Shown here piece by piece: positions 1,179-8,572 of a DNA stretch of 64,000 nucleotides. The notes under the pieces are model-generated. The model did no database searches and was not told where the DNA came from. It saw nothing but the letters and a program-made list of their open reading frames with translations. This stretch comes from Parcubacteria bacterium RAAC4_OD1_1 (GTDB taxonomy: Bacteria > Patescibacteriota > Minisyncoccia > Phycocordibacterales > UBA9973): assembly GCA_000505065.1 (NCBI GenBank), contig AWSN01000001.1, positions 196,567 through 260,566 of the forward strand. The letters run 5' to 3'. The translations under genes were made by a program, and so were the position numbers. Every line of letters begins with the position of its first letter. Positions within the stretch are counted from its first letter, which is position 1.

Positions 1179-1829
1179 TTATTCTTCTTTTGTTTCTCCT
1201 CCTTCTTCTTCTTTTTTACCTTTCTTTTCTACTTCAATAGAAGATAAGTCAACTGCTACCTCTTCTTCTTTTTCTTCTTTGATTGTAGTAACGAGAGCTA
1301 CAACTTCATCTTCGTTTGTTATAAGTTTAACTCCAATTGGAAGTTTAATATCTTTTGCGTGTATTTGATCTTCGAGTGTTTCTAGTTTGGTCAAATCTAC
1401 TTCTAGGTTGTGAGGTATATCTTTTGGAAGAGCTTCAATTTCTAATTCGTGGAGAACTTTAGTAAGTACACCCAAACCATTTTTCTCTGCTCCTGCTATA
1501 CCGATAAATTCAAGTGGAACTGTGACTTCTATAGATTTGTTCATATCGATTGCTAAGAAGTCTATATGTATAGGAAAGTCTTTTATTGGATCTTTTTGAA
1601 TTTCGTGTATAAGTACATCTACTTTTATAGGTTTGTCTCCTTTTATTTCTAATACTATTGCACTAGTTTCCCCTGCTACCTTTAATAATTTTGAAAATTC
1701 GATGCTCGGTACGGAAATCAGGGTGTTTTCCACGCGAGCGCCATAGACAACAGCTGGAACCATACCGTTATTTCGTATAGCATCTAGCTTATTTGCCTTA
1801 CTTCGCTTTGTTGCGGTTAATATATTCAT
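1179..1829 (-). CDS. rplY: 50S ribosomal protein L25 / general stress protein Ctc
   Basis: MNILTATKRSKANKLDAIRNNGMVPAVVYG... is a typical L25 N-terminus with an acidic C-terminal tail. ATG at 1829; the ORF-track start at 1865 is a TTG further upstream. Confidence 0.85.
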   Translation of the reverse strand: MNILTATKRSKANKLDAIRNNGMVPAVVYGARVENTLISVPSIEFSKLLKVAGETSAIVLEIKGDKPIKVDVLIHEIQKDPIKDFPIHIDFLAIDMNKSIEVTVPLEFIGIAGAEKNGLGVLTKVLHELEIEALPKDIPHNLEVDLTKLETLEDQIHAKDIKLPIGVKLITNEDEVVALVTTIKEEKEEEVAVDLSSIEVEKKGKKEEEGGETKEE

Positions 1830-2299
1830 AGGACAAATATTAACACTAAAATCAAATATTTGCAATAGATAATAAAAGGTGGTAAGGTTTGTGTAAAATA
1901 ACTTAAAATCAAAAAATATGAATACACTTGAAAACTTGTCATTTTCGGAGTTGCTTGATCTTTTAATAGATGAAGAAACTACAGATATTGAAAAATAGAG
2001 AGTTAAGAAGTTTCTTCTTAATAATTTTTGTGAAAATCCAAGTTATGCCTATAATCAGGCGATGGAAAATTTAAAAAACATTTCCGATGACAATCTTGTT
2101 ATTGCAAATTCCAGGCTTTGTGCCCGGGATATTGAAGAATCTTTGTTGGAAAATATGGAAACAATGTCTTTTGATGCAATTGAAAATATTGTTGAAGAAA
2201 AAATTGTAATCGGGAAAAAACATTGTATAAGGTTTTAAAAAATGGGTTAAAACCCATTTTTTTATTTTGATGTAGCAAGAACCATTCTTGCTAGTCACT

Positions 2300-2327
2300 G
2301 CTCCCCACTTGGGACGAAGTGGGAACC
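2300..2327 (+). repeat. Hairpin repeat R1 (GCTCCCCACTTGGGACGAAGTGGGAACC)
   Basis: Stem CCCACTT/AAGTGGG with loop GGGACG. First of six same-orientation copies in 2300..6660. Confidence 0.8.
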
Positions 2328-2363
2328 TTTTTGAGTAATAAAGAAAATATTGAATCCCGCATA

Positions 2364-2391
2364 TTGACAAATTCTATAAATATTATAGAAT
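2364..2391 (+). promoter_or_regulatory. Sigma70-like promoter for the 2472 gene
   Basis: TTGACA-N16-TAGAAT, followed by the ACTATACTCCTT motif shared with the other island promoters. Confidence 0.5.
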
Positions 2392-2471
2392 GATGAAAAA
2401 TATAAATCAGGGACTATACTCCTTGTTTTACATCAGCTTAAAATTTCTTTCACATTTAAAAAAAATAAAAT

Positions 2472-3197
2472 ATGACAACATTTGATTTTAACGACAATCA
2501 ACCTGAGTTTAGAGCTCGAGTTTTTGATGGAGACAAAAGTGTAAAAACAGAAAGACCCTATGAAATTTTTGGTAAAACAAAAAAATCAAAAGGAACAACT
2601 TTTTTGGATATGGAATGTGCCTGCGGTGCAACTGATTGCGTAAGTAGGATAAGCTTTTACTATAGTGGATTAAATCACTATTGCAACTCAAGAAATCTTG
2701 GCAGTGATACACAGATTAATATTAATCCTTCTCATAAAGAAGAAAATGGTAGGGCAAATAATGTAATGTGGGATCCGACTGATGAAAATGTTTCTGAATT
2801 TATTAATTTTTCAGAAACTGTACGAGAAGCAATTGCTTTCAAACAAAAGTTACTAAATGGTCTTTACGCAGAGTTACAGGTAAGAATTAAGGGAATTGAT
2901 TATTATGGTGAAGTACAACTGATTGTTCGTAAGGATGAAACAGATATGCTTTTTTATCTTTTTGAGATTCCTAATGTTTTTCCAAAAGTTCCATTGCTTA
3001 ACGAGGCGAAAACTTATCTTGAATGTTTAGGATTGGTTGCTACGTTACCAGCTGAAATAGATACCAGTAAAATAAAAAATGATTACGCTGATATGGCAAA
3101 TCCTTTTTTTAAACCTATCATTGAATGGGTTAAGTTGCTTGGAGAAGAAAATCAGATGGAACTTCAGATCAAAAACATTTGGGTAATACCTGAATAG
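2472..3197 (+). CDS. Hypothetical protein (241 aa)
   Basis: Full ORF in a hairpin-repeat-flanked cassette. No recognisable motif. Confidence 0.5.
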   Translation: MTTFDFNDNQPEFRARVFDGDKSVKTERPYEIFGKTKKSKGTTFLDMECACGATDCVSRISFYYSGLNHYCNSRNLGSDTQININPSHKEENGRANNVMWDPTDENVSEFINFSETVREAIAFKQKLLNGLYAELQVRIKGIDYYGEVQLIVRKDETDMLFYLFEIPNVFPKVPLLNEAKTYLECLGLVATLPAEIDTSKIKNDYADMANPFFKPIIEWVKLLGEENQMELQIKNIWVIPE

Positions 3198-3300
3198 TTT
3201 AGCAAATACCTCCCTATCATTTTTTGATAAGGGGGTATTTTTGAAAATTAAAAATATTATTTTAATACAAAAATCCTTTTTTTAAAAGGAGAATTTATTT

Positions 3301-3328
3301 GCTCCGAACTTGGGACGATGTTGGAACC
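3301..3328 (+). repeat. Hairpin repeat R2 (degenerate copy)
   Basis: GCTCCGAACTTGGGACGATGTTGGAACC matches the R-family consensus with 5 mismatches that disrupt the stem. Confidence 0.6.
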
Positions 3329-3485
3329 AGAATAGGACAAATAGAAAACCGCTAGTGATAGAGGTTTTCTATGCAGCTAGCGGCTGATTTACCGTTTTTA
3401 ATTGTTGAATACTTGCTCCAAGGGTAAAAGACTTTTAATGGCTTTGATTTTCTCTTGCCACTTTAAATTAAATCATTTTTTTAAA

Positions 3486-3749
3486 TTATCTTCTTTCAAG
3501 GTTTTTTTTGAAAGACTCAGCAAGAGAAGGTTTTTCTTCTCCGTTTTCACTTAAACACCAAACAAATTCTACTTCTGAACTTCTTTTTAGCGAAATTTCA
3601 GAAATAAGTTTTGCTCTGGTTTGTTCGTTATCGGGACCATAGATCTTGTATACATTCCTGTTTTTGACAGGATAAGTATCATCATCTATTCCTTCACCAC
3701 CAACAAAACCAATTTTAAAGATTGAAACAATCCACCAATAATTTTTCAT
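3486..3749 (-). CDS. Hypothetical small protein (87 aa)
   Basis: ORF preceded on the minus strand by TTGACA-N17-TAATGT (3788..3816). Confidence 0.4.
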   Translation of the reverse strand: MKNYWWIVSIFKIGFVGGEGIDDDTYPVKNRNVYKIYGPDNEQTRAKLISEISLKRSSEVEFVWCLSENGEEKPSLAESFKKNLERR

Positions 3750-3787
3750 CTTTTATGAGTTTAAAATTGTTTATACTTTTTTTCTTC

Positions 3788-3816
3788 ACATTACATTTAA
3801 ATCACTATTTTGTCAA
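3788..3816 (-). promoter_or_regulatory. Sigma70-like promoter for the 3486..3749 gene
   Basis: Minus strand reads TTGACAAAATAGTGATTTAAATGTAATGT. Confidence 0.45.
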
Positions 3817-3851
3817 ATAAGAAATCCCCCTCTACTAGAGGGAATTTACTG

Positions 3852-3879
3852 GCTCCCCACTTGGGACGAAGTGGGAACC
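3852..3879 (+). repeat. Hairpin repeat R3
   Basis: GCTCCCCACTTGGGACGAAGTGGGAACC, a perfect 7-bp stem. Preceded by the palindrome CCCTCTAcTAGAGGG. Confidence 0.8.
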
Positions 3880-4000
3880 TTAATGGTTAATGATAAGGAT
3901 AAAATTAAAAATTAAGGCCCAAACTTGGAATAATATTCAAAAGTTGTTTAGCAACAAAAAAAATAGTCTTGAAAGTATAAATACCATCAAGACTATATTT

Positions 4001-4627
4001 TTAATTAATGATTACAACACCATAAGAATAGGTAGGAAATCCTGTATTAGAATAATCATATTTCCACACCATCTCTTTTTTATCCCAATAGATAACTGGA
4101 ACTTCAGTCCAAGCGGCATCAAAAGGACAATAACAGATAGTACCTAAAAAAAGTATGTATGAATATTCTTTCCACTCCTCAGGAATAAGATCGGGGTGAA
4201 CTAAGAGATATTCGGCAACTCTTGCGTTAGCTAAAGATTTATTTGATATCTTTTTATAAGATGGATATGATCCATCAAATTCATCACATAATTCTTTATA
4301 TAACTCACAAGGACGGTCAAACTCTTTTGATGCAAATAAACTAATCTTGCTTAAATCCCATTTCAATAAACCGTTAGAAATGTGATTCATTACTGCATGA
4401 TGTGTCGTTGATTTTGGTTTTGTTCGCGTATCTATAATATGAATAGCTGATAATTCTTCTTTGCTTATTACACACGAATTATCCCTTATCACATCAAGAA
4501 CACTGGTTAAAATATTCCCCTCAGACAATGTTTTAATATCTCCATTTGTCCAACCATTACGACGAAAAGCCATTTTTAATTCATGAGCCTGGCTAACATC
4601 GAGCATTAAATCATCATTTGTACTCAT
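4001..4627 (-). CDS. Hypothetical protein (208 aa)
   Basis: ORF with an AGGAGA Shine-Dalgarno 8 nt upstream of the ATG and its own promoter module. Confidence 0.5.
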   Translation of the reverse strand: MSTNDDLMLDVSQAHELKMAFRRNGWTNGDIKTLSEGNILTSVLDVIRDNSCVISKEELSAIHIIDTRTKPKSTTHHAVMNHISNGLLKWDLSKISLFASKEFDRPCELYKELCDEFDGSYPSYKKISNKSLANARVAEYLLVHPDLIPEEWKEYSYILFLGTICYCPFDAAWTEVPVIYWDKKEMVWKYDYSNTGFPTYSYGVVIIN

Positions 4628-4799
4628 TGTTAAATCTCCTATATTTTTGCAACATATTTCTTTATTTGTTTTTTAGAAAATTGTTGCGAGTTAGTGCTGT
4701 TCTCAAATCGTTGTTGATTCTGCCGCAGCTAATAATAATCAATAATTAATTACTATTAGCCGAGGCAGAAGAATTTTAAAGAACTATAATACTCCTTAC

Positions 4800-4828
4800 A
4801 GTATAGCATATTATAACCTATTTGTCAA
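4800..4828 (-). promoter_or_regulatory. Near-consensus sigma70 promoter plus palindromic operator-like module
   Basis: Minus strand reads TTGACA-N17-TATACT, then GTAAGGAGTATTATAGTTCTTT. The palindrome CTATAaTACT..AGTATAG overlaps the -10. Confidence 0.55.
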
Positions 4829-4835
4829 TGTTAAA

Positions 4836-4858
4836 TACCCTTATAAAATAAGGGTATT
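4836..4858. other. Inverted repeat ATACCCTTAT-AAAA-ATAAGGGTAT
   Basis: 10-bp perfect arms between promoter and hairpin repeat R4. Possible terminator or insulator. Confidence 0.4.
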
Positions 4859-4865
4859 ATTACTG

Positions 4866-4893
4866 GCTCCCCACATGGGACGAAGTGGGAACC
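4866..4893 (+). repeat. Hairpin repeat R4
   Basis: GCTCCCCACATGGGACGAAGTGGGAACC, flanked by TACTG..CTTACTGG. Confidence 0.8.
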
Positions 4894-4970
4894 TTACTGG
4901 GAGAGTATAAATAGAAAAATCCACCTCAGTATAATGAAGGGATTTCCCTTCCACTAAAGTGGATTAATTT

Positions 4971-5429
4971 TTAATCGCCAGAAAGATCAGTGTATCCGTA
5001 TTCTTTTATTTTTCTCTTAATAAAATTTGATCCTTTCCTTACGCAAACTTCAATTGGCTTTGCTTTGTCTCTTGCTGTCAATCTGAATTTTGTACCATCT
5101 TTAAACTCTAAGACAACAGATGGTTCACCGTGTGTTGTTATAGCTGGTAAGGATAATTTTTTATTAAAAGGAATTATTGCATCCCCGATAATAAAATTAC
5201 TTTCCTCAATGTGGCATTTGATCCACCACTGAAAATCAGCAAAACCAACCGCGGGGTTTTCGTTCCACCCAGATATCATTGGAATACAAACATCATCAAC
5301 ATTTGATTTTTGATTTGTTAGTGTTAGTGCAGCAATATGCATGCGTAATTCATTTCCTATAGGTAATTGAGGATAAAGATACTCGATGTTACCAATAAAA
5401 ATTTCCTTTTCTAAAATTTTTGTTTTCAT
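4971..5429 (-). CDS. Hypothetical protein (152 aa)
   Basis: Full ORF in a repeat-flanked cassette. Confidence 0.5.
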   Translation of the reverse strand: MKTKILEKEIFIGNIEYLYPQLPIGNELRMHIAALTLTNQKSNVDDVCIPMISGWNENPAVGFADFQWWIKCHIEESNFIIGDAIIPFNKKLSLPAITTHGEPSVVLEFKDGTKFRLTARDKAKPIEVCVRKGSNFIKRKIKEYGYTDLSGD

Positions 5430-5543
5430 CTTGTTATTATTTAATTTTGTTTAACATTTAGTGAATTATCTACACCTCCAACAAGAAGCAAAGATAATCC
5501 ACCAAATACAATTAAATAATCAAAATATCAAAGAACTATACTA

Positions 5544-5572
5544 CTCTTTATAGTATAGCATAATAGAACCTA
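5544..5572 (-). promoter_or_regulatory. Near-consensus sigma70 promoter plus palindromic module
   Basis: Minus strand reads TTGACA-N17-TATACT, then ATAAAGAGTAGTATAGTTCTTTG. The palindrome ACTATACT..AGTATAGT spans the -10 and +1. Confidence 0.55.
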
Positions 5573-5585
5573 TTTGTCAATATCT

Positions 5586-5613
5586 GCTCCCCACATGGGA
5601 CGAAGTGGGAACC
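5586..5613 (+). repeat. Hairpin repeat R5
   Basis: GCTCCCCACATGGGACGAAGTGGGAACC, identical to R4. Confidence 0.8.
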
Positions 5614-5640
5614 TTAATAAAGGATTATAAATGATGTATA

Positions 5641-6576
5641 ATGATAATTATGATTGAAGCCCATAATATAATAAAACTAGAAGGAAATTCATTTGAGAGA
5701 GCGATTCGAAACGATTTTGGTTTTGACATTAATAATTCAGAGAAAATACAAAAAGGATACCAAAGCCAAGTATATAAGGCAAACCTAGATAATGAAGTTG
5801 TCTTTATAAGAATAAATAAAGATCCAAATGTTTTTGAAGTTGAACAGTTGGCCTATAAAATCTTTGAAGAAAAAGGGGTACCAGTTCCAAAAATTATTTC
5901 TTACAAAGAAAAACCAACATCAATAGGACAACCAACTATAATTATGACCTCCGTTGTAGGTAAAACTATCAGTGAAGCTAATCCTTCTCAAGAACAAAAT
6001 GATGTTATCTACGAAAACTTAGGAGAAATATTAAGAAAAATTAACGAAACTAAATTAGAAGGTTTTGGAGAATTAACAGTAGAAAATAACACCTTGGTTG
6101 GGAAATTTCCAAGTTGGAATGAATATTGTAAATCACAAAATGAACGCCACATTAAAGCTCTTAATTTTTGTGTGGAAAATAATTTTATAAAAAATGAAGA
6201 TGCAGATAAGATAAAAAGTATTTATAAAGAAATTGAGCAATTAAATTTTGGAAAAGCATCTCTTTTGCATAAAGATATACATCAAGGTCATTTTTTTGTT
6301 CAAGGATCAGATGTTACAGGAGTTATTGATTTAGGGTCATTAATGGCTGGTGACCCACGATATGATATTGCGATGAGTTTAGTTTTCCAAAACAAAAGAC
6401 AACAAAAACATTTTTTAAAAGGTTATAATAGTGATTTAGCTTATGATCCTATGGTTAATAAATATCTGATAACTATATTAATCAGAAAATTATATTTTAG
6501 AAGTAAACAAGAAATTAAAGGTAATGTTGATATTTTACTTTCGCCTCTAAAAGATTTACTAATTAAATTAATATAA
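5641..6576 (+). CDS. Aminoglycoside/choline-kinase (APH) family phosphotransferase
   Basis: Kinase-like motifs: beta-3 Lys in FIRINKD, catalytic-loop HKDIHQGHFFV, DLG, and GDPRYDIAMSL resembling APH GDPxYDLA. Confidence 0.6.
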   Translation: MIIMIEAHNIIKLEGNSFERAIRNDFGFDINNSEKIQKGYQSQVYKANLDNEVVFIRINKDPNVFEVEQLAYKIFEEKGVPVPKIISYKEKPTSIGQPTIIMTSVVGKTISEANPSQEQNDVIYENLGEILRKINETKLEGFGELTVENNTLVGKFPSWNEYCKSQNERHIKALNFCVENNFIKNEDADKIKSIYKEIEQLNFGKASLLHKDIHQGHFFVQGSDVTGVIDLGSLMAGDPRYDIAMSLVFQNKRQQKHFLKGYNSDLAYDPMVNKYLITILIRKLYFRSKQEIKGNVDILLSPLKDLLIKLI

Positions 6577-6635
6577 ATTCTAATTTAAAGAAAGATAGTA
6601 AAAATAACCTTAATTAAATAAGGTTAAATTTACTG

Positions 6636-6660
6636 GCTCCCCTAACAGGGTTCGAACTTT
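6636..6660 (+). repeat. Hairpin repeat R6 (divergent/degenerate)
   Basis: TACTGGCTCCCCTAACAGGGTTCGAAC shares the TACTGGCTCCCC prefix with R3/R4 but diverges afterwards. Confidence 0.4.
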
Positions 6661-6667
6661 TTGGTTT

Positions 6668-7549
6668 TTATAGGTTATTAAACAACTTTAAACGGTTATA
6701 AACTACTTCTTCTATAGCACCTACTGCATCCTTAAGTATTTTATAAGGAGCGATTTCGTTGGGATTTTCTTTTATATATTTTTCTAAGGCTTCTTTATAA
6801 GCGACTCTGATTTCTGTATTGATATGAATTATAGATATACCAGCTAGAATTGCATTTTTAAAATCTTCATCACTAATACCTGATCCACCATGTAATACAA
6901 GTGGTACACCTGCACTTTGTCTTATTTCTTTAATTCTTTCTATGTTTAATTTTGGATTTCCACCTTTTACCATACCATGAATATTACCTACTGATGGTGC
7001 AAGTAAATTTATACCAGTGTGTTCGACAAAGTATTTTGCATCTTCTATTTTTGTCATAGTTTCTTCACTGACGCCTTCGGGAATTTCTTCTAAGAGTTTT
7101 GAGGATGTGCCAATGAATCCTATCTCAGCTTCTACGAGTACATCTCTACCCTCTTTTGCATTTATATCTCTCGCATACTCTACGCATTTTTTTGTAAGAG
7201 CTATATTTTCTTCTAATGGTAATTTTACAGCATCTATGATGACGGTATCGAATCCATCATCTATACAAGCTTTAATTGATTCAAAACTATAATGATGATC
7301 CGCATTTAAAAATATTGGGAAATTATCTTTCTCTCGTGCATTCTTTACAAGAGCAGATACTTCGTCTCTTCCAATAAATTCTTCTTCCCCTTCTGACACT
7401 CCTATGATAACTGGGACATTAAGTTTCTTAGCTGCATTATAAATACCATGAAAGGCCTCAATATTTGAAATATTAAAATGCCCAATTGCTATTTTTTTCT
7501 TTTCTGCTTCTTTTATATATTCTCTTAAGGTTTTTATAATCATATACAA
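6668..7549 (-). CDS. fba: Class II fructose/ketose-bisphosphate aldolase
   Basis: AIGHFNISNIE and LHGGSG motifs. 293 aa, class II FBA/TBP aldolase family. Confidence 0.85.
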   Translation of the reverse strand: MYMIIKTLREYIKEAEKKKIAIGHFNISNIEAFHGIYNAAKKLNVPVIIGVSEGEEEFIGRDEVSALVKNAREKDNFPIFLNADHHYSFESIKACIDDGFDTVIIDAVKLPLEENIALTKKCVEYARDINAKEGRDVLVEAEIGFIGTSSKLLEEIPEGVSEETMTKIEDAKYFVEHTGINLLAPSVGNIHGMVKGGNPKLNIERIKEIRQSAGVPLVLHGGSGISDEDFKNAILAGISIIHINTEIRVAYKEALEKYIKENPNEIAPYKILKDAVGAIEEVVYNRLKLFNNL

Positions 7550-7579: not shown

Positions 7580-8572
7580 ATGATGGATGAAAAAATTGAT
7601 TTATTAGCAATTGGAGATATTGCGACAGAACCTTTTATTAAAATTAAAGAAGCAAAAGAAGAATGTGAGCCTAATGGTCATTGCAATCTTTGTCTTTCTT
7701 TTAGAGATAAGATCCCCTATGAAGAAGCAACTATTTGTTATGCAGTTGGTAATAGCCCCAATGTTTCAATTGGAGCTAGTCGGCTTGGACTCAATACTTA
7801 TCTTGTTTCTTATGTGGGTAACGATAGAGATGGTAGTGAAAATATAAATTTTTTAATAAACGAAAATGTAAAGACTGATTATATTCATATCGCAGATGGA
7901 CTGTCCACAAATTATCATTATGTTTTGTGGTACAACAAAGATAGAACGATTCTTGTTAAACATACAGATTTTCCATATGTTTTGCCATCCGATCTAAAAG
8001 AGCCTAAATGGATGTATCTTTCTTCTTTATCATCAAATTCTATTGAATATCACAAAACTATATCTCTATATTTAAAGAATCACGAAGAAGTAAAATTTGC
8101 TTTTCAACCTGGGACTTTTCAAATAAAATTTGGTTATGAGGAATTAAAAGAAATATATGAAAGAACTGATGTATTTTTTTGTAATAAAGAAGAATATCAA
8201 AAAATTTTAGAAACAAAGGAATCTGATGAAGTAAAATTGATGAAAATGATGCATAAAATTGGTCCCAAAATGTTAATTCTGACAAATTCTAAAGATGGAG
8301 CCTGGGCATATAATGGAGAAAACATTTGGTATATTAAAGCTCTTCCAGGGGATCCATTTGAAATGACTGGTGCCGGAGATGCTTTTGCTTCTGGTTTTAT
8401 TTCTTCTCTTATTATGGGGAATAATATAGAAACATCACTTCTTTATGGTTCTATAAATGCTAGATCTGTTATCGAAGAGATAGGTCCACATGAGGGGCTT
8501 TTAACAAAAGAAGAAATTGAAGAAGCAATAGAGAAAATTCCTGTTAAATTTAAAGCTAATAAAATTAATTAA
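7580..8572 (+). CDS. PfkB-family carbohydrate/nucleoside kinase
   Basis: Ribokinase-like fold with C-terminal GAGDAFASGF motif. Extended -10 TGGTATAAT at 7565..7573. Confidence 0.75.
   Translation: MMDEKIDLLAIGDIATEPFIKIKEAKEECEPNGHCNLCLSFRDKIPYEEATICYAVGNSPNVSIGASRLGLNTYLVSYVGNDRDGSENINFLINENVKTDYIHIADGLSTNYHYVLWYNKDRTILVKHTDFPYVLPSDLKEPKWMYLSSLSSNSIEYHKTISLYLKNHEEVKFAFQPGTFQIKFGYEELKEIYERTDVFFCNKEEYQKILETKESDEVKLMKMMHKIGPKMLILTNSKDGAWAYNGENIWYIKALPGDPFEMTGAGDAFASGFISSLIMGNNIETSLLYGSINARSVIEEIGPHEGLLTKEEIEEAIEKIPVKFKANKIN

Follow-up and report, generated by a model that had tools for sequence, protein, structure and literature searches.

Islander-type tDNA islands grow by tandem accretion of integrative elements at tRNA genes. 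Integron attC sites measure 57-141 nt and have the order R''(RYYYAAC)-L''...L'-R'(GTTRRRY), with extrahelical bases. The Xer-dependent pdif modules of Acinetobacter are small gene modules bounded by 28-bp sites of 11-6-11 geometry on which a host recombinase acts in trans; pdif sites are plasmid-borne, conform to the dif consensus and face in alternating directions, and IMEX arrays lie at the replication terminus. In Prochlorococcus, tycheposon islands likewise form by tandem accretion of integrative elements at tRNA genes (bioRxiv 10.1101/2020.12.28.424599). The cis-mobilizable CIMEs and microCIMEs of streptococci keep their att sites but carry no recombination or transfer genes, stand in tandem at one target, including as gene-less units of 130-220 bp, and have the 3' end of the aldolase gene fda among their targets (PMC7563491). 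Tandem accretion at tRNA genes, as in tycheposon islands and CIMEs, together with integron cassette arrays, offers the closest known analogues of the locus described here.

Repeats and gene units between rplY and fba

The window, by which we mean the whole stretch of 64,000 nucleotides analysed, contains an island of gene cassettes (A to E) and junction elements (R1 to R6 and b'):

1179..1829, minus strand: left flank, ribosomal protein L25 (rplY), 216 aa as called on the source contig
2300..2327, minus strand: R1, R-type junction element (minus strand GGTTCCCACTTCGTCCCAAGTGGGGAGC), 54-bit match to the class covariance model; in tRNA orientation, the 3' end of cassette A
2328..3300, plus strand: cassette A, 241-aa gene of unknown function (2472-3197); promoter TTGACA-16-TAGAAT (2364-2391, plus strand); terminator hairpins (3209-3298)
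3301..3328, minus strand: R2, b-type junction element (minus strand GGTTCCAACATCGTCCCAAGTTCGGAGC)
3329..3851, minus strand: cassette B, 87-aa gene of unknown function (3486-3749); promoter TTGACA-17-TAATGT, read by eye (about 3790-3818, minus strand); hairpin/terminator (3822-3847)
3852..3879, minus strand: R3, R-type junction element, same as R1
3880..3915, minus strand: gene-less 36-nt unit between b' and R3, sequence read directly
3916..3942, minus strand: b', degenerate b-type element of cassette C (TTTTGAATATTATTCCAAGTTTGGGCC)
3943..4865, minus strand: cassette C, 208-aa gene (4001-4627) with a long leader; promoter TTGACA-17-TATACT (4800-4828, minus strand); hairpin (4837-4858); terminator (about 3955-3995)
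4866..4893, minus strand: R4, R-type junction element, A variant
4894..5585, minus strand: cassette D, 152-aa gene (4971-5429); promoter TTGACA-17-TATACT directly after R5 (5552-5580, minus strand); terminator (about 4915-4965)
5586..5613, minus strand: R5, R-type junction element, A variant
5614..6633, plus strand: cassette E, APH-family kinase gene (5650-6576), 308 aa as called on the source contig; promoter TTAATA-17-TATAAT (5614-5642); hairpin (6607-6628)
6634..6664, minus strand: R6, tRNA-type junction element (minus strand CCAAAAA-GTTCGAACCCTGTTAGGGGAGCCA), about 10 nt from the fba stop codon
6668..7543, minus strand: right flank, class-II fructose-bisphosphate aldolase (fba), 291 aa as called on the source contig

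A pattern search returned exactly four matches to CCCACWTGGGACGAAGTGGG, at 2304, 3856, 4870 and 5590, all on the plus strand; 100 shuffled sequences gave none, and none is expected by chance. The repeat is an imperfect 28-nt palindrome of 11-6-11 geometry (GCTCCCCACTT GGGACG AAGTGGGAACC) whose R-type arms are CCCACTT/AAGTGGG. R1 and R3 are the same over the full 28 nt; R4 equals R5, and both carry a T-to-A change that gives an A.A mismatch within the 7-bp stem. These four copies are identical at 27-28 of 28 positions, and the sequences flanking them are unrelated. Repeat search and fuzzy scan also recover R2, which shares 24 of 28 bases; in them R6 (6636 onward) has only TTTACTGGCTCCCC in common with the other copies and then diverges. 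Of these six copies, four are near-identical over 28 nt, one reaches 86% and one is partial, and the degenerate b' adds a seventh. Every copy is intergenic, the spacings from R1 to R6 being 1001, 551, 1014, 720 and 1050 nt, and R1-R6 are co-oriented (6/6) despite gene strands of +,-,-,-,+. A fuzzy scan allowing up to 8 mismatches found no copy beyond 2300-6664, whether in the rest of the 64-kb window or in the 7.5 kb to its left, and the sole extra match of the covariance model in the window had E=0.89; within the 71 kb searched, the repeat is confined to the island and to a single orientation.

In its minus-strand reading, GGTTCCCACTTCGTCCCAAGTGGGGAGCCA, the repeat forms a hairpin running into a tRNA-Asn-like acceptor-arm 3' end (GGAGCCA), and terminates in GGGGAGCCA; after R3 comes CAGTAAAT and then a hairpin. 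R and b types both retain (G)GGAGC(CA), and their stems differ by two compensatory pair differences. R6 is a 24-nt canonical tRNA 3' fragment, with T-loop, 3' T-stem, acceptor 3' strand, G73 and CCA; it lacks the 5' half, and no tRNA is called there. Canonical T-loop, acceptor and (C)CA fragments occur at R6, at 52-79 of contig L007 and at 2320-2341 of contig L031; L031 holds an R6-homologous element with the same flank. Since the repeat mimics the tRNA-Asn 3' end on the other strand, it belongs with tRNA-targeted att sites and not with integron attC sites. As in tDNA islands, direct repeats of a tRNA 3' end stand at the unit boundaries; no intact tRNA gene was found in or beside the island.

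The cassettes are single-gene promoter-ORF-terminator modules of 0.5-1 kb, each with its own strong promoter (10-11/12 sigma-70 match) and terminators, and with mixed gene strands. The promoter modules beside the repeats are homologous to each other but only 88% identical, against 96-100% for the repeat copies. The 36-nt unit at 3880-3915 resembles an empty cassette. When all window ORFs of 80 aa or longer were searched with XerD by phmmer, no match fell below E = 0.9.

The preliminary description of this locus thus holds for the six same-orientation copies, their intergenic placement at 550-1050 bp, the A mismatch in R4 and R5, the gene strands, the position between rplY and fba and the lack of an integrase in the window. 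It had called both R2 and R6 degenerate, which fits R2, whereas R6 is a different family member; b' lies beyond the copies it listed.

Counterparts in other genomes

In arrays on at least five other Patescibacteria contigs, small genes are set apart by related elements (TTCGAACATCGTCCC...AAGTTCGGAGCA). The covariance model matched five window and 18 non-window elements, only within such arrays and on one strand per locus. Contig L022 has at least ten junctions in 12 kb, and the array of L028 is headed by an intact tRNA-Asn(GUU) gene (8015-8090), with co-oriented elements and a homologue of cassette D. The hairpin is TTCCCAC..GTGGGGA in the window and TTCGAAC..GTTCGGA elsewhere, and loop inserts in other arrays are variable, of 30-40 nt. 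The R2 variant is common in other genomes (83-90% to the L007, L026 and L028 elements), and b' is homologous to L007 1004-1029.

Other arrays hold cassettes A, C and D again, at 70-89% DNA identity and with different neighbours, and for A and C the homology begins exactly at GGAGC. The homologue of cassette A in L031 (76% identical, same promoter and leader) has different junction partners on both sides, one end keeping GGAGC(C)AAATAAAT and the other a hairpin arm. Cassette C is 89% identical over 957 nt to L007 73-1026, where a tRNA-Asn 3'-end fragment of about 36-45 nt precedes it in place of the hairpin and identity starts exactly at GGAGCCAG. Cassette D has homologues in five contigs (L022, L024, L026, L028 and L030), in each of which the cassette promoter has a junction element immediately upstream and the neighbours differ. 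The same array design, with shuffled cassettes, is present in at least six genomes. No precomputed Pfam match to Phage_integrase lies in the 10-20 kb around these five arrays; an integrase gene inside each element, as in tDNA islands, was found neither there nor in the window.

In relatives with about 70% identical L25, the interval from fba to rplY holds a single small gene and lacks the repeat. The relative L013 has, at the same locus, cassettes with the same promoter module and no junction element, and some junctions in L024 lack one. Neither circular junctions nor excision variants were observed, nor was an empty site within a single population.

These comparisons support the cassette array and the DNA-level role of the repeat that had been proposed from the window: co-oriented elements punctuate arrays of up to ten or more units in other genomes, the fba-rplY gap differs among relatives, and the same cassettes stand beside other neighbours with homology breaking exactly at the repeat. 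That proposal had overlooked the tRNA mimicry, the tRNA fragment in R6 and the promoter and terminator of each unit.

Resemblance to described arrays

As in tycheposon islands, a tRNA gene stands at the start of the L028 island, partial tRNA 3' ends in one orientation divide successive units, new units would push older ones along, the cargo consists of small accessory genes and the host genomes are streamlined. Here, by contrast, there is about one gene per unit and no integrase in any unit, the tRNA fragment has been remodelled to a short hairpin keeping only (G)GGAGC(CA), every unit has a conserved promoter module, and the window array lies at the fba 3' end without an intact tRNA. CIMEs share with the island tandem units without recombination genes, bounded in the island by putative att sites, and, in the 36-nt stretch, a gene-less unit; the window array also adjoins an aldolase gene, like the streptococcal fda target. 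Units bounded by direct-repeat sites without a recombinase are likewise found here, with between-genome reshuffling at GGAGC breakpoints; mobilisation in trans or in cis would make the accretion CIME-type. CIMEs, however, adjoin an integrase-supplying ICE or IME and number one to three per site, whereas the arrays here run to 5 to 10+ units and have no ICE or IME within view and a tRNA-Asn-derived att site.

Integron arrays and CALINs also consist of 0.5-1.5-kb, mostly single-ORF cassettes of unknown functions, shuffled between hosts, with a structured co-oriented site at each junction that is homogeneous within a genome and different between genomes; their integrase may be absent nearby. They differ from our arrays, where sites are 28-37 nt against 57-141 nt, the R-type lacks AAC/GTT core triplets, breakpoints fall at GGAGC, cassettes have strong promoters and terminators of their own in either orientation, the site is related to a tRNA 3' end and no IntI was found. 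We rejected a canonical attC array on the 28-nt R-type with its CCCACTT/AAGTGGG arms; the b-type does contain AAC...GTT, but with only 10 nt between and no L boxes. Promoterless, co-oriented cassettes driven by Pc, with intI/attI at one end, do not match the self-promoted, terminated units on mixed strands, and no integrase was found.

Like pdif modules and IMEX arrays, the island has 28-bp, 11-6-11 sites bounding small gene modules, but the sites neither alternate nor match the dif consensus, nor do they lie at a terminus. Chromosomal dif and pdif were rejected because the dif-like ATAA/TTAT inner arm is missing, placement at the terminus because both flanks have the same gene strand and negative skew, and pdif-like alternation because all sites are direct repeats. 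CRISPR was rejected since the spacings of 551-1050 nt hold expressed-looking genes, against spacers of 25-70 nt; no cas-like match was found among the island proteins.

Origin of the junctions

We favour, with moderate confidence, the reading that the repeats are att-type junctions of integrase-less, promoter-bearing gene cassettes, accreted by a site-specific recombinase encoded elsewhere. Successive rounds of site-specific recombination at a derivative of the tRNA-Asn 3' end would have assembled the array. On the minus strand, a cassette would start with GGAGC(C)A(G/A)TAAAT, in many cases with an insulating hairpin next to it, continue as one autonomous transcription unit (promoter, ORF and terminator) in either orientation, and end in a short hairpin whose 3' strand runs into the next GGAGC, mimicking the acceptor 3' end of the host tRNA-Asn. 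The candidate enzyme is most simply a tyrosine integrase targeting the tRNA-Asn 3' end, which would exchange strands in or beside the shared (G)GGAGC(C) core. Circular cassettes may be inserted beside the tRNA-Asn gene or any existing junction, and cassettes between two directly repeated junctions may be excised. As the analysis showed neither a recombinase nor any circular form or excision variant, we infer the recombination, its chemistry and enzyme, and the present activity of the system.

Some observations run against att-type junctions. The window array has only the R6 fragment and no adjoining intact tRNA-Asn, and neither the window nor the surroundings of five other arrays yielded a recombinase gene. 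The element-free locus of L013 implies that cassettes can also move or persist without a junction element. Some junctions in other arrays, as in L024, are bare too. Loop inserts of 30-40 nt fit poorly with a double-stranded core site of fixed geometry, and the near-identity of the copies could reflect gene conversion instead of recent recombination.

The tRNA-fragment junctions at R6, L007 and L031, the degeneracy of R2 and b' and the lack of an integrase in or near any array examined would also suit fossil footprints: displaced tRNA-Asn 3' fragments and decayed att sites, immobile today, left by one ordinary integrative element or prophage after another, each of which then shed its integrase and the bulk of its genes. 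Tandem integration that leaves partial tRNAs and degenerate remnants has good published precedent (10.1101/2020.12.28.424599; CIMEs, PMC7563491). We regard the fossil reading as rather unlikely: four copies are 96-100% identical when the adjoining homologous promoter modules reach 88%, all units are tidy modules of 0.5-1 kb and not random remnants, the tRNA end has been remodelled to a hairpin with compensatory changes, and the design recurs, with cassettes shuffled, in at least six genomes. The same compensatory changes, which keep the hairpin, would favour a system acting on folded single-stranded DNA, as with integron attC, IS200/IS605 or REP hairpins, in which an integron-type integrase or HUH (Y1) enzyme would replace a classical tRNA-targeting integrase. 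Loop inserts range from 0 to about 40 nt, a tolerance also seen in the variable part of attC, b-type arms hold ..AAC / GTT.. triplets in attC order, and strictly co-oriented elements separate cassettes of 0.5-1.5 kb. Yet the R-type has CAC/GTG in place of these triplets, the elements, at 28-37 nt, fall short of every attC in length, long variants fold no better than shuffles in 4/7 cases (z -0.2 to +0.4), the L031 copy has non-complementary arms, breakpoints fall at GGAGC outside the stem instead of at G|TT, and no IntI-like or HUH gene was seen, which makes this mechanism distinctly improbable.

A cis-acting role in expression is very doubtful, be it as insulator or terminator, as operator just upstream of the cassette promoter, or as an RNA micro-helix that would imitate the acceptor stem of tRNA-Asn (9 bp + G73 + CCA) and punctuate transcripts via RNase P or the CCA-adding enzyme. 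It would account for the -35 TTGACA 4-6 nt past GGAGC in many copies (R5; L024, L026, L028), for the minus-strand fold of a 9-bp helix followed by GCCA (z = -2.3) and for the terminator-like score of R1. But R1, R2 and R6 face the 3' ends of convergent genes, making orientation independent of transcription; most copies lack a T-tract and many lack CCA (GGAGCAG or GGAGCAAA), the Rfam search gave no match, and between-genome homology breakpoints coincide with the element. As to an ordinary dispersed REP/BIME-type repeat, which the preliminary description had considered, or an array of Xer (dif-like) sites, the intergenic, imperfect 28-nt palindrome of 11-6-11 form would suit either. Both are nonetheless extremely unlikely: the 71 kb searched holds zero copies beyond the island and one orientation within it, on which ground REP/BIME was rejected, and for Xer, the sites show no likeness to the dif consensus, do not alternate as in Acinetobacter pdif modules, and lie away from the replication terminus, between minus-strand flanking genes with negative GC skew.

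This ultra-small Patescibacteria bacterium thus carries five self-contained single-gene units joined by 28-base hairpins that mimic the end of the tRNA-Asn gene, and under the att-type reading that we prefer, the joints of this island are most likely the remains of cut-and-paste action by a recombinase.

The repeat and its likeness to the tRNA-Asn 3′ end

The repeat is real and limited to the island. Its core, CCCACWTGGGACGAAGTGGG, was found four times by pattern search, on the plus strand only, and not once in 100 shuffles. R1 and R3 are the same over 28 nt, and so are R4 and R5; a single T/A change separates the two pairs and places an A.A mismatch within the 7-bp stem of R4 and R5. The preliminary description had counted six copies at 2290–6665; four are indeed near-identical and R2 retains 24 of the 28 bases, but R6 has only TTTACTGGCTCCCC in common with the others, and a seventh, degenerate copy is present. 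The gene strands (+,−,−,−,+), the intergenic location of the copies and the rplY and fba flanks agree with that description.

Features of the island (2300–6664) and its left border
1919–2238: interval between rplY and R1, with two short ORFs
2304, 3856, 4870 and 5590, plus strand: cores of the R-type copies R1, R3, R4 and R5
3301: R2, the b-type copy
3880–3915: gene-less 36-nt unit between b′ and R3
3916–3942: b′, the degenerate b-type copy
4772–4829 and 5524–5581, minus strand: promoter/leader module of cassettes C and D
6634–6664, minus strand: R6 (repeat at 6636), a tRNA-type junction beside fba

A fuzzy scan with up to eight mismatches and a covariance model found no further copies in the 64-kb window and the 7.5 kb to its left, which speaks against the REP/BIME-like option raised at the outset; the source genome was read over 71 kb and the other contigs as pieces of 1–20 kb. 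In the genome contig collection, the exact R pattern had three matches, each a coincidental in-frame occurrence within coding sequence of an unrelated genome of higher GC, and it had none in viral or JGI metagenome contigs. The b-type pattern did not match viral contigs, blastn of the island did not match phage or plasmid collections, and Rfam gave nothing at gathering thresholds and noise alone up to E 10. Two independent short-read contigs (L005 and L006, from Logan assemblies SRR6486333 and SRR944699) terminate exactly at R4, presumably because R4 and R5 have more than 31 identical bases in common. Assemblies based on k-mers would systematically fragment such arrays, and MAGs would under-report them.

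Read on the minus strand, the repeat (GGTTCCCACTTCGTCCCA(A/T)GTGGGGAGC(C)AG) is a 7–9-bp hairpin whose 3′ strand runs on into GGAGCCA, corresponding to the acceptor 3′ strand with G73 and CCA in a tRNA of the tRNA-Asn type. On its minus strand R6 (GTTCGAACCCTGTTAGGGGAGCCA) is canonical from the T-loop through the 3′ T-stem and the acceptor strand to CCA, the 5′ two-thirds of the tRNA being absent. The assignment to tRNA-Asn comes from two loci in other genomes: contig L028 carries an intact tRNA-Asn(GUU) ending in ...GGTTCGATCCCTGCCTCCGGAGCC, and a fragment in L007, TAAGCGATTGGTCGTAGGTTCGATCCCTACCCACGGAGCCA, matches it from the anticodon loop on. Since the R-type 3′ strand in the window (GTGGGGAGCCA) matches R6 (TAGGGGAGCCA) over 9–10 nt, and b-type elements elsewhere (GTTCGGAGC) match the local tRNA-Asn over CGGAGC, the junction element appears to track the 3′ end of the host tRNA-Asn. 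ARAGORN, run over the junctions of the window and of L007, called neither a tRNA nor a tmRNA there. Just upstream of the intact tRNA-Asn of L028, at 7884–7960, a 5′ fragment like the start of the same tRNA (TTCCAGAGTAGCT...) precedes GC-rich hairpins; the fragment might be the footprint of a second integration or a 5′ piece that was displaced.

A covariance model made from nine short copies retrieved 23 elements that stand out from noise; 5 of them belong to the window and 18 to contigs of other genomes (L007, L022, L024, L026/L027 and L028). All are intergenic and lie on one strand per locus, gene strands being mixed in the window and in L026, and the L022 array has at least 10 junctions in 12 kb. 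Their common form is TTCGAACATC(R)(Y)CCC, then 0–40 nt, then AAGTT(Y)GGAGCA. Two compensatory pair changes, C-G to G-C and C-G to A-T, set the R-type of the window apart from the b-type, the 9-bp helix being otherwise invariant; these pairs represent essentially one evolutionary event, so that they lend modest support to a structural constraint on the helix, in alignments that are biased to the imposed structure and hold few independent variants. The predicted R-type fold is significant (z = −2.3) and those of most long-loop variants are not. Some cassettes without the tRNA-like element are separated by a different junction repeat (L024 736–777 and 3319–3360; L022 3279–3321 and 6681–6723), which contains three GTGAAC motifs (e.g. 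TTGTGAACATGTAAATGTTGTGAAC) and may be part of another promoter/operator type.

The cassettes and their counterparts in other genomes

Judging from its predicted signals, every inter-repeat unit (cassettes A–E) would be an autonomous transcription unit. Of the sigma-70 matches in 5 kb, the top three (11/12) belong to the promoters at 2364 (cassette A), 4828 (C) and 5580 (D); that of E is a 10/12 match immediately past R5, and terminator-like hairpins are enriched (9 observed against 2.2 expected). Within the window, a conserved 58-nt promoter/leader module is confined to cassettes C and D, with 88% identity between the two. The same module stands upstream of unrelated ORFs in different cassettes and genomes (L007 113–172; L013 9272–9328; L022 3645–3704, 7230–7292 and 8682–8744; L028 11278–11421 and 11934–12047). 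It consists of TTGACAAAT..N..TATGCTATACT, an inverted repeat over the −10 (such as CTATACTA..TAGTATAG or CTATCA..TGATAG) and then ATAGTTCTTTGATATTTTGATT. The module has the look of a common operator/leader, pointing to co-regulation of the cassettes.

Most cassettes encode proteins without detectable family or fold relatives. In the window, the product of E is an APH-family kinase (Pfam PF01636, 5.6e-23) that falls under all specific NCBIfam cutoffs, and the proteins of A, B, C and D had no match in Pfam, PADLOC, PHROGs, NCBIfam or PDB sequences. Sister arrays carry Fic, HD, NYN, zeta-toxin-like, NUDIX, NT5C, SocA/Panacea, DinB, NADAR and similar small accessory genes, a content typical of cassettes or islands. 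The N-terminal ~48 of the 208 residues of the cassette-C protein (window 4484–4627; 21–26% of length) recur elsewhere, with 70–79% identity to the N-termini of otherwise different proteins of 158–261 aa (P0058–P0069) and 50% identity to P0070 at 33% coverage, which points to a shared, swappable module. The gene-less 36-nt unit resembles an empty cassette, comparable to the streptococcal microCIMEs. Between rplY and R1 there are two ORFs in different frames, one of 26 codons that ends in TAG and one of 58 codons; taken together they resemble a small gene that was disrupted, or one more decayed cassette. ORF0, from this region, proved not homologous to a 77-aa protein of L007.

Cassette C (window 3919–4870) is 89% identical to L007 73–1026 over 957 nt. 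The identity begins exactly at GGAGCCAG, upstream of which stands the R4 hairpin in the window and a tRNA-Asn fragment in L007, and it stops within the cassette's own 3′ element (b′ in the window, TTCGAACATCACCCCAAGTTCGGAGC in L007). Distant homologues (40–45%) occur in Bacteroidota-like and other contexts (L008–L010), with no junction elements at these loci. Cassette A has a 76%-identical homologue in L031 that retains promoter and leader and has GGAGC(C)AAATAAAT at one end and an arm GGT(T/C)C(C/T)CACTT..TCCC at the other. On neither side are its neighbours those of the window: one is an R6-type tRNA fragment that abuts a PIF1-like helicase gene, the other is unrelated DNA. Homologues of cassette D in L022, L024, L026, L028 and L030 (62–84% protein identity) have different neighbour genes in each case. 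Their DNA homology (70–83%) covers promoter, gene and terminator and ends at or just short of the flanking elements, and every locus has an element, degenerate in some cases, immediately ahead of the D promoter. In both the window (6657–6690) and L031 (2340–2365), the R6-type fragment is followed by ~20 similar nucleotides, TTTTTGG(T/G)(T/G)TTTATA, directly abutting the stop codon of the convergent gene, fba and the PIF1-like helicase respectively; the end-piece of the array would therefore itself be conserved and portable.

The island is flanked by ATP synthase, prfA, L31 and L25 on one side and by fba, pfkB, tkt, rpe, rpiB and gap on the other, all minus-strand housekeeping genes, with a negative GC skew to either side, so that it does not mark the replication terminus; a terminus dif site was ruled out on the same grounds. 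Its G+C (0.29–0.32) equals that of the surroundings. In relatives with ~70% identical L25, gene order is conserved and the fba–rplY gap holds one small gene and no junction element (145 aa with the same promoter module upstream in L012/L013; 113 aa in L015). This gap thus seems to be a variable hotspot, and the five-cassette array specific to this lineage.

Proposed recombination at a common core and competing explanations

Site-specific recombination in or beside a common (G)GGAGC(C) core would be the simplest model for all mapped breakpoints. The partner of a circular cassette with one site (hairpin, GGAGC and AGTAAAT...) would be either the tRNA-Asn 3′ end or any junction already in place, and excision would then be possible between direct repeats. 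Such a model would explain the single site orientation whatever the gene strand, the tRNA-Asn-headed L028 array and the tRNA-fragment junctions, the reshuffling of cassettes between genomes, the near-identical copies beside unrelated DNA and the gene-less 36-nt unit. Crossover within the hairpin loop, considered from the hybrid L031 site, was dropped, all mapped breakpoints being at GGAGC; an L031 arm diverged at the same rate as the remaining cassette is the simpler reading.

The window array has no intact tRNA. A tyrosine recombinase search of the window came back empty, in line with the integrase-free window first described, and no recombinase was found in the fetched parts of five other arrays; neither cassette circles nor deletion variants were seen. 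On balance, we lean towards the repeats being recombination junctions of an active or recently active trans-mobilised system; a now fossil state of the same junctions is distinctly less probable. A single-strand attC-like or HUH-type mechanism would account for the variable loops and compensatory changes, but fits the sequence features and breakpoints poorly, and we judge it unlikely. Slightly less likely still is a purely cis-regulatory or RNA role (insulator, operator or RNase-P-processed micro-helix), which the frequent GGAGC-N4-6-TTGACA arrangement and the fold of the helix with GCCA would suit, whereas some copies face convergent genes and the breakpoints also contradict it. REP/BIME, dif/pdif and CRISPR readings, each missing its defining features, are together very improbable.

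Relation to known systems and significance

In the pdif modules of Acinetobacter and in IMEX arrays at dif, 28-bp 11-6-11 sites bound small gene modules and the host recombinase acts in trans. The island is like these in function, but it has no dif-like inner arm, lies off the terminus and has sites that do not alternate in orientation. It is also functionally like integron cassette arrays and CALINs, although the attC features tested were lacking, so that it does not belong to the integron family. Its tRNA-fragment separators between units recall the tandem accretion of tycheposon islands at tRNA genes, with partial-tRNA separators (bioRxiv 10.1101/2020.12.28.424599). As att-type bounded, integrase-less units, its cassettes are similar in function to streptococcal CIMEs and gene-less microCIMEs, which are att-bounded and integrase-less and have the 3′ end of the aldolase gene fda as one target (PMC7563491). 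A standard tDNA island it is not, because no unit has an integrase and this locus has no intact tRNA. A horizontal-transfer survey of 125 Patescibacteria genomes reports genomic islands, its text making no mention of tRNA, integrase, direct repeat or cassette (PMC12455944). Full-text literature searches found no published description of these junction elements.

The genomes of Patescibacteria (CPR) are tiny and few mobile elements have been recognised in them, yet up to about 13% of such a genome has been credited to horizontal transfer, by no known route (PMC12455944). An array anchored at tRNA-Asn, whose one-gene cassettes come with promoters, would provide this gene flux with a concrete mechanism. 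It would also be a new case of convergence on the logic of integrons and tycheposons, and would yield short, defined recombination sites; it offers a direct handle on the responsible recombinase, through co-occurrence, and on more cassettes. More tentatively, Patescibacteria might own an integron-like platform of autonomous cassettes with regulated promoter and terminator and a hairpin site mimicking the tRNA-Asn acceptor, which an unlinked recombinase would insert, excise and shuffle at tRNA-Asn and, as secondary sites, at places like the fba 3′ end. If true, this platform would be a dedicated way for minimal genomes to sample accessory genes.
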